A stretch of DNA of 64,000 bases from Escherichia phage AV110 (OR352940.1), one strand, 5' to 3'. Shown: positions 23,444-26,499, numbered from the stretch's first letter. Numbers and translations: made by a program. The notes: a model not told the origin generated them from the sequence alone.

Positions 23444-23451
23444 TATTTATA
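23444..23451 (-). promoter_or_regulatory. Late promoter TATAAATA (minus strand) about 25 nt upstream of the rI.1 start
   Basis: Exact T4 late-promoter octamer on the minus strand, overlapping the tk stop. Confidence 0.5.
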
Positions 23452-24028
23452 ACAACCCTGTCAAATCATTCCAATGCTTCCGGCATAATGACACATATCT
23501 ATCGGTATCACCAATTTCAATTTGACTGCCATCTGTAATTGGAAGTCCGTCTTCCGTGACTCTAGCTACCATTGTGGCCTTTTTACCACAATGACAGACA
23601 CCTTTAAGTTCAACAAGCTTATCAGCAATAGCCATTAATGCTTGAGAACCTTCAAATAGATTACCTTTAAAATCTGTTCGTAGTCCATATGCCATTACCG
23701 GCACATTGTATACGTCAACAATACGACTAAGTTGATACACCTTTTCAGTAGTTAAGAACTGAGCTTCGTCAACAAATACACAATGAATATCCTTTTGTGC
23801 TGCAGCCCATTTATAGAATTCAAAGATATCCATGTCTTTTGTAATTATATTGGCATCCTGACGAATACCAATACGAGAGACTATTTCACCTTTTGAATCA
23901 CGAGTATCAATAGCCGGTTTAAGAACTAATACACCCATGCCACGTTCTTTATAGTTATGTGCGGCAGTAAGTAATGAAGCAGACTTACCAGCATTCATAG
24001 CGGCATATGTAAAAATTAAACTAGCCAT
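23447..24028 (-). CDS. tk: Thymidine kinase
   Basis: 193-aa ORF; P-loop AAMNAGKS, VDEAQF, Zn-ribbon C..C pairs. Confidence 0.9.
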   Translation of the reverse strand: MASLIFTYAAMNAGKSASLLTAAHNYKERGMGVLVLKPAIDTRDSKGEIVSRIGIRQDANIITKDMDIFEFYKWAAAQKDIHCVFVDEAQFLTTEKVYQLSRIVDVYNVPVMAYGLRTDFKGNLFEGSQALMAIADKLVELKGVCHCGKKATMVARVTEDGLPITDGSQIEIGDTDRYVSLCRKHWNDLTGLL

Positions 24029-24037
24029 AAGAGTCCC

Positions 24038-24220
24038 TTATAGTGAATTCACGTAGTCAATGAGTTCTTGTTCTTTCCTGTCAAATGATTCCATCAATGC
24101 TTGATATTCTTCATCTGTTAAAGGAGCATATTCATCGTACGCATTGGTGGCTGCTTGCTCGTCCAATAGGTCATGGATAAGTTCGAACAGTTTAGTTTTC
24201 TCTTCTTTAGTCAATTTCAT
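24038..24220 (-). CDS. Hypothetical small acidic protein
   Basis: 60-aa ORF. Confidence 0.45.
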   Translation of the reverse strand: MKLTKEEKTKLFELIHDLLDEQAATNAYDEYAPLTDEEYQALMESFDRKEQELIDYVNSL

Positions 24221-24444
24221 TTAGGTTCACCTTCTTTAACGAAATCCGGGTAAGGGTAAAATCCTGAGTAAAACCCTTCACCTTTATGATTGCTACAACC
24301 TTTGTTCGAACAGTAACACCAATAATCAAAATCACAAGCCATTTCGTCATTGCATAAAGCAAAAACTACAGGCCATTCGCATTTTTCGCATTTAGCACCT
24401 GTAAGAATTTTTGTTTGACTCATAGCCATGTCACCTTTAAGCAA
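24217..24444 (-). CDS. Hypothetical Cys-rich small protein
   Basis: 75-aa ORF with 8 cysteines. Confidence 0.45.
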   Translation of the reverse strand: MLKGDMAMSQTKILTGAKCEKCEWPVVFALCNDEMACDFDYWCYCSNKGCSNHKGEGFYSGFYPYPDFVKEGEPK

Positions 24445-24647
24445 TATTCTTCTACATGTTGTTTACGGCCTTTCTTATCAATAAAGGTATATTCAACGAA
24501 TGTTCCAATGTAGTCTTTATCTACATCATGTGGACTATTAATTGGACATTTGGTACGACAAATGCGTTCCCATTGACGAATAATTACTGCCTTATTCTTT
24601 GGGTCATATGGATGTGGATAATGTATATTCATAATAATGGTTCCCAA
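24420..24647 (-). CDS. Hypothetical small protein
   Basis: 75-aa ORF. Confidence 0.45.
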   Translation of the reverse strand: MGTIIMNIHYPHPYDPKNKAVIIRQWERICRTKCPINSPHDVDKDYIGTFVEYTFIDKKGRKQHVEEYCLKVTWL

Positions 24648-25126
24648 TCAACAATCACAATTTCTAGTTTAGTGGAATACGTATCTAAAATCTCTTCGAT
24701 GACATCCCAGTTTCCACCACCAATACCTGCACCAATTCTTGGCATATAAATTACAGGCTTTGTTATCTTATTCTTTCCGAATTCATTTAATTCTATTATA
24801 CAATTCATTAAAGCAGAGTACTCAAAATTAGGTCCAGGCTCAAACTGCGTATAAAGATTAAAGCAATAAGCTTTATGGGTCTTAAAATATTTTTCATAAA
24901 CCGAATAAGACCCGAGTTTAGACTCGTCTCCGAATTCGGTTTGAAGTTTATCGGCTTCTAAAATTTTTGGATAAGCCTTTGCTAATTGGCCTGCTACACC
25001 GGCGCCCATTGTATGAAAACAATTACACCCATGAGCAATATTATTACCTTTAGAAAACAGGGCGACAATATCGCCCTTGATATAGTTTTTAATCACTTGC
25101 TGCAAGTCCTCTATTATAAGAGTCAA
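24629..25126 (-). CDS. Macro-domain-like protein (putative ADP-ribose binding/hydrolase)
   Basis: 165-aa ORF; IAHGCNCFHTMGAGVAGQLAKAYP and glycine-rich IGAGIGGG resemble macrodomain signature motifs (from memory). Confidence 0.55.
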   Translation of the reverse strand: MTLIIEDLQQVIKNYIKGDIVALFSKGNNIAHGCNCFHTMGAGVAGQLAKAYPKILEADKLQTEFGDESKLGSYSVYEKYFKTHKAYCFNLYTQFEPGPNFEYSALMNCIIELNEFGKNKITKPVIYMPRIGAGIGGGNWDVIEEILDTYSTKLEIVIVDWEPLL

Positions 25127-25436
25127 CTAGACGGTCCACCATAGAATTGCATGCTGCCTTATCTTTAGGTTCCGCCACCGAGCATTCTAATATTTGCCAT
25201 TTTTTATAGTATCTTTTAATTAAGGTAGACGCCTTGAACCTACTAGACGCCCCATCTTTTTCTCCGTCTTTATACGCATATAACAATTTTTGTGAAAAAT
25301 CTACTTTACACTCTTGACTTTTACCACAATAATCAGACGCCGTTCTGTTTGTATACTCCGTTACATCAGTATATGTAGTATTAGCAAGAGCGTTAAATGA
25401 AACCAAGCCAACTATTAAAGCCAACATTTTGGTCAT
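25089..25436 (-). CDS. Small secreted protein (signal peptide, four Cys)
   Basis: 115-aa ORF; N-terminus MTKMLALIVGLVSFNALA. Confidence 0.5.
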   Translation of the reverse strand: MTKMLALIVGLVSFNALANTTYTDVTEYTNRTASDYCGKSQECKVDFSQKLLYAYKDGEKDGASSRFKASTLIKRYYKKWQILECSVAEPKDKAACNSMVDRLVDSYNRGLAASD

Positions 25437-25975
25437 TCTTTTATTTCCAGTAGTTTATTTGATTTAAGGTAATTAGCCTTTTCTAGGACTTCAGAAGCAT
25501 ATTTACTTCCAGCACTTGTCTTCCATCCCGCATTATATGAGGATATAGCTTTTCTTATATCCCCGTTATGTATATTTAACCAATAAGAAAATTCAATATA
25601 AGCCCATCTGGCTGAATTAGACCGCTTAGATAGCATTTTCTTAATTTGGGCATCAGTCATATTATAACCAAGCTGGTTAATTCTTGCCCTCATTGTTGGT
25701 AGATAATTTTGGAACATTCCATACGCATGGTGACCTTTCTTATCTTTAAGATTAATACCGGCAGATGATTCCTGCCATAGTATGGCGGCCATTATGTATC
25801 CAAGTCCTTTCTTATGCATATTTTCATGCGTTTTAAATTTTCCGTCCTTAGAAAACTGTTCCCCAAACTGATAAGCATAATTCAAGTTATCGAGTTGGAC
25901 ATTACTAAAAGTATGCTCGGAGCTATGTGCTGATAACGAAAGAGCAAATAGACCAGCGAGTAGTGCTTTTCTCAT
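25433..25975 (-). CDS. Secreted lytic transglycosylase-like protein (SLT-domain motifs)
   Basis: 180-aa ORF; signal peptide MRKALLAGLFALSLSAHS; WQESS and AYGMFQ motifs. Confidence 0.6.
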   Translation of the reverse strand: MRKALLAGLFALSLSAHSSEHTFSNVQLDNLNYAYQFGEQFSKDGKFKTHENMHKKGLGYIMAAILWQESSAGINLKDKKGHHAYGMFQNYLPTMRARINQLGYNMTDAQIKKMLSKRSNSARWAYIEFSYWLNIHNGDIRKAISSYNAGWKTSAGSKYASEVLEKANYLKSNKLLEIKE

Positions 25976-25983
25976 GTTTACCT

Positions 25984-26442
25984 CTAGATTTTAATCACTG
26001 CTTTAGAAGCTTTTCCTGGTAGTCGTTTACTGTTAATAATAGCCATTCTGCATTGAAGAGTCTTCATTTTGAATGCTGGATTTTCACGACAAACTGTAAG
26101 ACCTAACCAAAGATTTCCATCAGTTATTTCTAAACGGCCTGGGCGATATTCGACACCTTCGACAAAATCTTCATCAACATCTGGACGTGCCGGCATTGAT
26201 AAAAATTCTGCAACTTCTTTAACATGATTTTTTACTTTATGAAATAATTCAAAAACGTAATTCTCATCTATTTCTCTCTGGATGGCACGATCTAAGAGAT
26301 GTTGAGAATACTTGATATGAAAGCCTGGTAGTCCAAGAGACTTTGCAGCATCTTTTATACCGGCATTTATTTTGCGGAACTCCGTTTCAAAGATTCGACG
26401 GAGTTTATTACGGCGGATAAAAACGTCTGAATTGATAGTCAT
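25984..26442 (-). CDS. regB: Endoribonuclease RegB
   Basis: ORF track 25984..26466; start at MTINSDVF (26442); extended similarity to remembered T4 RegB. Confidence 0.85.
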   Translation of the reverse strand: MTINSDVFIRRNKLRRIFETEFRKINAGIKDAAKSLGLPGFHIKYSQHLLDRAIQREIDENYVFELFHKVKNHVKEVAEFLSMPARPDVDEDFVEGVEYRPGRLEITDGNLWLGLTVCRENPAFKMKTLQCRMAIINSKRLPGKASKAVIKI

Positions 26443-26447
26443 TTTGA

Positions 26448-26499
26448 TTTCTCCTCTAGTTGTCATGTCTATAGTAACACAACTAGAGGAGAAGTAAAC
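26448..26499 (-). promoter_or_regulatory. PeSL-type early promoter with 15-bp perfect inverted repeat upstream of regB
   Basis: TTCTCCTCTAGTTGT ... ACAACTAGAGGAGAA, then GTTTAC -35; right arm supplies the regB SD. Confidence 0.65.

Follow-up and report, generated by a model that had tools for sequence, protein, structure and literature searches.

The Mosigvirus ortholog of T4 Tk.4 (AdfM), a stand-alone phage macrodomain with glutamine at the position of the DarG catalytic lysine

Between the vs and tk.3-like genes of Escherichia phage AV110 (OR352940.1), on the minus strand, lies a gene that by sequence is the Mosigvirus ortholog of T4 tk.4. The window analysed is a single stretch of 64,000 nucleotides, and all coordinates are counted from its first letter. 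We consider it likely that this Tk.4/AdfM ortholog is an early-made, single-domain macrodomain that clears thymidine-ADP-ribose, by what is probably a glutamine- and water-based chemistry. The macrodomain annotation and the anti-DarTG2 role are already known, from the T4 record and from a 2025 preprint on T4. The replacement of the catalytic lysine by glutamine in the Tk.4 family is a nuance that may be absent from print.

T4 Tk.4 (NP_049723) is identical to the window protein at 132 of 155 residues (85%; 94% similar, E 2e-105). T4 is a Tequatrovirus, whereas the window phage is a Mosigvirus, that is, an RB69-like T-even phage. In T4, tk.4 likewise lies between vs and tk.3, and its SD spacing and internal hairpin match those of the window gene. 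Twelve positions (H22, N25, G33, D49, N80, Y82, T83, Q84, P119, G122, G124 and W130) are identical in T4 Tk.4 and invariant in the family. The two genes differ in their start codon (ATG in T4, GTG here), in their overlap with vs (4 nt in T4, 8 nt here) and by 23 substitutions, including G127 here for K127, at a diphosphate-loop position that is variable across the family.

In a HIDEN-SEQ screen of a T4 transposon library on DarTG2-carrying E. coli, tk.4 was the single significant hit, and its clean deletion sensitises T4 to DarTG2; the gene was renamed adfM, for anti-DarT factor Macrodomain, in November 2025 (bioRxiv 10.1101/2025.11.20.689424). The preprint notes the structural similarity of Tk.4 and DarG and, offering no enzymology, says only that it "seems likely" that Tk.4 strips ADP-ribose from DNA enzymatically (bioRxiv 10.1101/2025.11.20.689424). 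A reading of the window made beforehand from the sequence alone (the sequence-only reading) had suggested counter-defence against DarTG. The 85%-identical, syntenic T4 Tk.4, whose deletion is DarTG2-sensitive, lends this idea support, and the deletion test on DarTG hosts proposed with it had already been published for the T4 ortholog (bioRxiv 10.1101/2025.11.20.689424). Without the anti-DarTG1 factors adfA/adfN, T2 and T4 are still fully resistant to DarTG2, an earlier observation that a role for adfM in T4 fits. Secondary sources give T5 and SECphi18 as DarTG2 targets and do not name RB69. The complete genome of T5, taken as a DarTG2-sensitive control and searched with all filters off, has no ORF matching the Tk.4-family or the DarG macrodomain profile (best E 0.14). 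In the same search the window ORF scores 2.4e-66 with the Tk.4-family profile and 6.7e-10 with the DarG-type profile.

The gene and its surroundings comprise the following features.

24629..25096, minus strand: coding sequence of adfM, the tk.4 ortholog, opening with GTG and closing with TGA at 24631..24629, for a 155-aa stand-alone macrodomain
25096..25094, minus strand: GTG, most likely start codon of the adfM ortholog (product of 155 aa, ~17.4 kDa)
25107..25111, minus strand: GAGGA, predicted ribosome-binding site of the adfM ortholog
25097..25126, minus strand: 5′ extension from TTG 25126, within the 3′ end of vs and holding the GAGGA site
25059..25077, minus strand: GC-rich hairpin followed by a U-run, terminator-like, in codons 7-13 of adfM (terminator scan and fold)
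25089..25436, minus strand: vs (valyl-tRNA synthetase modifier), upstream of adfM (synteny with T4 and JK36)
24420..24632, minus strand: tk.3-like gene (DUF7202), downstream of adfM (Pfam DUF7202, 2e-38; JK36 and T4 annotation)
23447..24028: thymidine kinase, TK (Pfam PF00265, 7e-57)
25984..26466: RegB (Pfam PF10715, 7e-69)

The minus-strand ORF spans 24629..25126 and gives 165 aa when opened at TTG 25126, the form in which the sequence-only reading had described it. The frame stands, and both IAHGCNCFHTMGAGVAGQLAKAYP and IGAGIGGG occur letter for letter in its translation, but that start lies 30 nt too far upstream. GTG 25096 is most likely the true start, rather than TTG 25126, judging from several comparisons. 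T4 Tk.4 (155 aa) aligns with the GTG-started product over residues 1-155 with zero gaps, and the T4 ATG and GTG 25096 align base for base, each with GAGGA 11-12 nt upstream. In the 165-aa version, the alignments with more distant phage homologs and with the PHROG profile begin only at residue 10/11. P0001, the nearest protein cluster (97% identity, 184 members), is 155 aa long, and the GenBank record of phage JK36 is annotated with the identical GTG 25096 start. A start at TTG 25126 or TTG 25105 is disfavoured by the T4 alignment, the homolog N-termini and the cluster length, and the extra 30 nt (25097..25126) are probably not translated as part of the macrodomain protein. A GGTGG sequence lies 9 nt upstream of TTG 25126 and leaves some room for the longer form. 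A start at the internal ATG, as annotated for NicPhage (126 aa), is rejected because it would delete strand 1 and the HGCNC loop, pieces of a confidently folded domain.

The genes are densely packed here, as is typical for T-even early genes. The TAA stop of vs overlaps the adfM start region (GTGATTAA), and the ATG of the tk.3-like gene overlaps the adfM TGA in an ATGA, which suggests translational coupling of the latter pair. The gene order vs, tk.4, tk.3, tk.2, tk, on one strand, is common to the window and T4. Pfam matches to TK and RegB bear out the tk-regB context that the sequence-only reading had given; the interval between these two genes also holds vs, a vs.1-like ORF and three small genes, for DUF7202, a phage zinc-binding domain and DUF7438. 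The hairpin inside adfM is found, identical, inside T4 tk.4, and two GenBank records carry 'Terminator' features beneath the match. Judged from its sequence, it could lower read-through from vs, or else do no more than reflect conserved coding sequence.

By sequence and predicted fold, the window protein is a genuine macrodomain and belongs to the TARG1/DarG/Poa1p ('ALC1-like') class. The Pfam Macro model PF01661 matches it with 27.4 bits (E 3.6e-6; gathering score 22) over profile positions 2-117 of 118. Searched against PDB sequences, the protein matches BT1257 (4.8e-11) and Poa1p (1e-8). A profile built from a family alignment of 92 phage and metagenome homologs strengthens these matches, to 7e-17 for both BT1257 and TARG1, 3e-14 for Poa1p, 4e-14 for SCO6735 and 6e-14 for M. 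tuberculosis DarG, while viral macrodomains of the nsP3/Mac1 type remain far weaker, at about 1e-4. The same alignment yields an AlphaFold2 model with pLDDT 95.2 and pTM 0.91, in which six strands and five helices alternate. Its top Foldseek matches in the PDB are TARG1, Poa1p, the T. aquaticus and M. tuberculosis DarG, BT1257 and SCO6735, with TM 0.68-0.80 for the best of them (TARG1, Poa1p, DarG and BT1257), and every one of the best 50 is a macrodomain or a macrodomain-based design. Model and matches together show the three-layer alpha/beta/alpha macrodomain fold. The motif assignment of the sequence-only reading thus agrees with Pfam, with PDB sequence and profile searches, with profile-profile comparison and with a model of pLDDT 95. 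Two checks had been proposed for it, and neither refutes the macrodomain call: in profile searches, Pfam Macro scores above threshold and hhalign against DarG gives 98.8%, and the best AlphaFold2/Foldseek matches are ADP-ribosyl hydrolase macrodomains.

Database labels for the family are varied. PHROG 335, named 'phosphatase', matches at 1.5e-66, and the T4 RefSeq entry for Tk.4 reads 'phosphatase; Tk.4; contains A1pp phosphatase motif'. Several GenBank records carry 'macro domain protein', 'ADP-ribose binding module' or 'Macro domain, Poa1p-like family', and the JGI name for relatives is 'O-acetyl-ADP-ribose deacetylase'. In PADLOC and NCBIfam, DarG models are the sole matches, over their macrodomain part only (8.8e-9 and 7.5e-8).

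Four segments, located by alignment, would line the active site.

25019..25033, minus strand: H22-G-C-N25-C motif, residue roles taken from equivalents
24998..25009, minus strand: M30-G-A-G33, first glycine-rich loop, predicted ADP-ribose/phosphate binding
24845..24859, minus strand: N80-L-Y-T-Q84 strand end, with Q84 at the DarG K80 / TARG1 K84 position
24707..24742, minus strand: P119-RIGAGIGGGN-W130, second glycine-rich loop, predicted diphosphate binding

N25 corresponds to DarG N22, PhiKZ AdfM N23 and SCO6735 N27, and H22 to Poa1p H23 and SCO6735 H24; roles of residues equivalent to H22 and N25 have been described (PMC5179494, PMC9411070, PMC13309987). Among 260 proteins pooled from two database searches, H22 is conserved in 253 and N25 in 258. 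The MGAG loop, with an invariant G33, aligns with VMGKG of DarG and MGAG of TARG1. In the second loop, G122 and G124 correspond to G126 and G128 of SCO6735 and to G121 and G123 of TARG1, and G126 takes the position of TARG1 D125. Both the MGAG and PRIGAGIGGG loops are present and invariant across the family.

The residue that sets the family apart from DarG and TARG1 is Q84. Profile-profile comparison (hhalign) of the family alignment with a set made up of M. tuberculosis, T. aquaticus and Thermosipho DarG and PhiKZ gp104 gives a probability of 98.8% and lays NLYTQ opposite NFPTK, placing Q84 on the catalytic lysine. Profile alignment to TARG1 (4J5R) places it on K84 (tQ/TK) and G126 on D125; the Lys84/Asp125 pair with which TARG1 carries out catalysis is thus Q84/G126 in the window protein. 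The glutamine never varies: it is present in all 92 homologs from phages and metagenomes, in a set of 81 sequences (the query and 80 homologs from bacterial genomes, retrieved by patterns that do not include Q84) and in all 260 pooled proteins.

A mechanistic parallel is SCO6735 of Streptomyces coelicolor (PDB 5E3B), a stand-alone ALC1-like macrodomain that, like the window protein, combines a glutamine with a first-loop asparagine (Q84 and N25 here) and has the Gly126/Gly128 loop. SCO6735 carries Gln85 in place of the lysine and cleaves DarT-made thymidine-ADP-ribose with a turnover above that of DarG or TARG1, by a proposed mechanism that uses a positioned water molecule (PMC9411070). Q85A or Q85E abolishes all of this activity and N27S nearly all (PMC9411070). 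SCO6735 also guards against DarT toxicity outside any DarTG operon (PMC9411070). Its loop, PRIGxGxxGGxW, is nearly identical to that of the window protein, and the two diphosphate loops align directly (PRIGAGIGGGNW in the window, PRIGCGLAGGTW in SCO6735). The correspondence of Q84 with Q85 is drawn through the DarG and TARG1 alignments and a statement in PMC9411070, not through direct alignment of that segment; a half-length PDB query for such an alignment aligned the C-terminal loop only. In overall sequence SCO6735 is distant, scoring 26 bits in the pairwise comparison and 4e-14 when the family profile is used, and by profile search against PDB sequences the Tk.4 family is no closer to it than to Poa1p or TARG1. 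A counterpart of its longer mobile loop, with Lys89 and Lys94, was sought in the FEPGPN segment of the window protein and none was found. SCO6735 is a bacterial housekeeping gene, whereas the window gene belongs to a phage.

DarG (T. aquaticus 5M31/5M3E, M. tuberculosis 5M3I; NF048014) has in common with the modelled window protein the fold and the ADP-ribose pocket, along with the conserved asparagine (N22, equivalent to N25), the glycine loops and the target system, DarT2. The DarG macrodomain alone suffices as an antitoxin against DarT; its K80A mutant is inactive and gives no rescue from DarT toxicity, and N22A is the second most damaging change (PMC5179494). Identity to the window protein is about 20%. 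DarG has about 330-340 aa, whereas the window protein has 155 aa and lacks the C-terminal DarT-binding domain. The DarG catalytic K80, in the FPTK motif, is Q84 here, and W83, the proposed thymine stacker, is P87. The NF048014 equivalog model scores 32 bits against a cut-off of 250, over model positions 4-146 of 338, and no darT lies beside the window gene, whose neighbours are vs and tk.3. The protein is therefore not filed as a DarG, from which equivalog score and architecture, catalytic lysine and darT adjacency all separate it.

PhiKZ gp104, also named AdfM, removes DarT2-made ADP-ribose from DNA; its N23A mutant has lowered activity, and K78 is modelled as the equivalent of DarG K80 (Cell Rep 2026, PMC13309987). 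Like T-even AdfM, gp104 and its chimallivirus homologs are phage stand-alone macrodomains that counter DarTG2. However, gp104 is close to DarG (9e-25 to the M. tuberculosis protein) and keeps its lysine, K78, in FPTK, and BLASTP aligns it with the window protein over 23 residues only (E 6e-4). Both facts rule out a single family. The two proteins called AdfM are, as their sequences indicate, different macrodomain lineages with different predicted catalytic residues. They also differ in setting: gp104 enters a phage nucleus by import, a structure absent from T-even phages.

Human TARG1/OARD1, yeast Poa1p and Bacteroides BT1257 (2FG1/2AFC) are the best fold and profile matches and have the same overall pocket. 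Poa1p, characterised as an Appr-1''-p phosphatase, has the H-x-C-N-C motif in common with the window protein. Of its mutated residues, taken from PDB titles (H23, S30 and F152), H23 aligns with H22 and S30 with T29, and the alignment around F152 is poor. BT1257, a protein of no known function, has the PRIGCGLAGGKW loop in common with the window protein; opposite Q84 it has a lysine in the pairwise phmmer alignment and a glutamine in the profile alignment.

The family is large and widely distributed. By megablast, about 145 phage records contain the ORF at 95-99.6% identity; the two inspected, JK36 and NicPhage, are classed as Mosigvirus (RB69 group). A further 221 records match at 80-90% identity, the band that holds the T4-type alleles (84-85% protein identity). 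With tblastn, 2,796 of 50,697 phage records contain relatives, and their hosts span many genera. An exhaustive profile search returns 1,259 clusters (50% identity) at E <= 1e-30 and 9,219 at E <= 1e-10. Most members of the Tk.4 type appear to be single-domain proteins, since the median length among 259 pooled family proteins is 156 aa. Copies with 35-45% identity occur in bacterial genomes of many phyla, and the genes immediately beside the 36 bacterial loci inspected have diverse housekeeping roles. The 72 bacterial neighbour ORFs contain 92 Pfam families, and the 25 commonest of these do not include DarT. A NADAR gene is a neighbour at two bacterial loci. The distribution suggests a stand-alone macrodomain of bacteria, and not a DarG antitoxin, as the source of the phage gene. 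Given such housekeeping surroundings, with no DarT among their 25 commonest families, something other than DarT-modified DNA could have been the ancestral substrate.

A sequence of events can be proposed on this basis. AdfM would be made early in infection from the overlapping vs-tk.4-tk.3 gene string. Host DarT2, of the DarTG2 system, would ADP-ribosylate thymidines of single-stranded phage DNA and so block replication. The glycine-rich loops MGAG and PRIGAGIGGG are predicted to hold the ADP-ribose moiety, and Q84, held by N25, would position the distal ribose so that a water molecule begins cleavage, as in SCO6735. Hydrolysis of the thymidine-ribose bond would give back clean DNA, and AdfM would thereby serve as a free-standing stand-in for the macrodomain of the DarG antitoxin. 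The lysine-nucleophile chemistry of DarG and TARG1 is improbable, as the equivalent residue is the invariant Q84, and catalysis by AdfM is probably of another kind. With the essential DarG lysine missing, DarG-like activity is not to be assumed from homology alone; that the window protein hydrolyses dT-ADP-ribose by a Gln/water mechanism is inferred by analogy with its characterised relatives.

The absence of the DarG/TARG1 catalytic lysine also invites a reading in which DarT2 is neutralised mainly without catalysis, through binding of the toxin or shielding of ADP-ribosylated sites. The phage anti-DarT factors AdfA and AdfB do work through toxin binding, and catalytically dead SCO6735 Q85A still inhibits DarT in vitro, more so than dead DarG or TARG1 (PMC9411070). 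SCO6735, with the same glutamine, is nonetheless a fast hydrolase (PMC9411070), and the T. aquaticus DarG macrodomain with K80A alone does not inhibit DarT (PMC5179494). N25, Q84 and the glycine loops are moreover invariant across hundreds of clusters, including those of bacteria without a DarT neighbour, and such invariance favours a conserved catalytic pocket over a toxin-specific interface; we regard this non-catalytic route as quite unlikely. Somewhat less improbable, yet still unlikely, is that the protein reverses ADP-ribosylation of protein or RNA, whether by ART-type defences and toxins or as Asp/Glu-linked marks, instead of or besides that of DNA. The nearest relatives with characterised activity, TARG1 and SCO6735, strip Glu/Asp-linked ADP-ribose from proteins as well, the family is very large and mostly outside DarT contexts, and T-even phages face ADP-ribosylation conflicts such as mRNA ADP-ribosylation by CmdTAC. 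However, CmdTAC is described as a robust defence against the T-even family, tk.4 carriers notwithstanding, and the protein/RNA reading comes without a supporting phenotype. The ADP-ribosyltransferases of T4 itself, Alt, ModA and ModB, target arginine. Cleavage of arginine-linked ADP-ribose is not known for the macrodomain class of AdfM, which counts against such a role.

The database names raise another alternative, namely that the main job is a small-molecule one, as an ADP-ribose-1''-phosphate phosphatase or an O-acetyl-ADP-ribose deacetylase, with protection from DarTG2 secondary or indirect. The T4 RefSeq A1pp label, PHROG 335 and the JGI name all point that way, as does Poa1p, which ranks among the top matches by both sequence and fold, has the H-x-C-N-C motif in common and aligns at H22/H23 and T29/S30. 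These names are, however, homology transfers from Poa1p-like proteins rather than the outcome of assays, and the profile match to Poa1p is weaker than that to TARG1 or BT1257. DarTG2 sensitivity is the only tk.4 phenotype in the cited screens. RNA repair by T4 Pnkp/Rnl1 is not known to yield the 2′-phosphate junction, the source of Appr-1''-p, which also tells against this role, and we find it the least probable of the alternatives. Clearance of thymidine-ADP-ribose is the preferred reading.

A further, joint reading concerns the origin of T-even AdfM: an independent recruitment from a very large family of Gln-type stand-alone macrodomains with housekeeping settings in bacteria, not a captured DarG, working by an SCO6735-like water mechanism and maybe on broader substrates than DarG does. 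The arguments for and against it are, in our estimation, evenly poised. Here Q84, and perhaps also D49 and Y82, which are family-specific invariants, would take part in the mechanism.

The discovery value of the gene itself is small, given that the T4 reference record already bears the macrodomain label and that protection from DarTG2 was published for the T4 ortholog in 2025. The remaining value is mechanistic and lies in the invariant Lys-to-Gln swap and in the existence of two AdfM lineages. By analogy with the T4 phenotype, adfM would let T-even-type phages replicate in DarTG2-armed hosts, and its commonness together with its anti-DarTG2 role would be useful when therapeutic phages are picked or engineered. 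Together, the swap and the two lineages offer a clean case in which convergent counter-defence, and DNA de-ADP-ribosylation that needs no lysine, can be tested. If the joint reading is true, anti-DarTG2 activity would have arisen in phages on at least two occasions, from Tk.4-type and PhiKZ gp104-type lineages.

The name AdfM was coined independently in two papers, for T4 Tk.4 and for PhiKZ gp104, which belong to different macrodomain lineages. T4 Tk.4 is of the Gln-type and, among solved structures, lies closest to TARG1 and BT1257, whereas PhiKZ gp104 is of the Lys-type and a close relative of DarG.

The start of the AV110 gene, an ortholog of tk.4, differs between public records. An ORF finder begins it at a TTG codon (165 aa; window 24629..25126, minus strand), the JK36 record at a GTG (155 aa) and the NicPhage record at an internal ATG (126 aa), the last truncating the domain. 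Mosigvirus adfM carries no ATG at its true N-terminus. Features within and around the gene are as follows.

24038..24647, minus strand, three small genes of unknown function, downstream of adfM
24950..24952, codon of D49
25059..25077, minus strand, 8-bp hairpin of high GC content, AGGGCGAUAUUGUCGCCCU; GUUUUCU comes after it, with the U-run reaching 25049
25433..25975, minus strand, vs.1-like ORF, 180 aa, hydrophobic N-terminus
25984..26466, RegB (PF10715, 7e-69)

The hairpin falls 20-38 nt into the adfM coding sequence. T4 tk.4 contains it unchanged, and a "terminator" feature stands at this site in two GenBank records. Such an element could attenuate read-through from the upstream gene vs. 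Alternatively, it could result simply from conservation of the codons for KGDIVALF. Over its 91-nt context, the fold z-score is only -1.76.

The first small gene below adfM is tk.3-like (DUF7202) and probably coupled to it through an ATGA overlap. The product of the second is rich in Cys and matches the "phage zinc binding domain" (PF23895, 5e-29); the third is tk.2-like (DUF7438). The vs.1-like ORF matches the SLT lytic-transglycosylase family weakly, under the gathering score (E 1.3e-3). Its RegB label in the JK36 record is wrong, the real RegB being the next gene.

Relatives sharing 35-45% identity are also encoded by bacteria, among them Rhodobacterales, Desulfobacter, Verrucomicrobia and Planctomycetes. 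Their neighbours are housekeeping genes, for example semialdehyde dehydrogenase, or Ile-tRNA synthetase together with signal peptidase II. A NADAR-domain neighbour was found at two of 36 bacterial loci, and DarT is absent from the 25 commonest of the 92 neighbour families at these loci. Among the ORFs of T5 (NC_005859), the control phage sensitive to DarTG2, neither Tk.4-family nor DarG-type macrodomain profiles detected a homolog, even with filters off (best E 0.14).

Like Q84, the glutamine at the position of the DarG/TARG1 catalytic lysine, D49 and Y82 are strictly invariant in the Tk.4 family (260/260, family alignment and pooled database hits). Among the residues named in the descriptions consulted for DarG, TARG1 and SCO6735, none could be matched to either of the two. 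D49 and Y82 are therefore best listed as candidate residues, with a possible part in catalysis or substrate positioning that is particular to this family.
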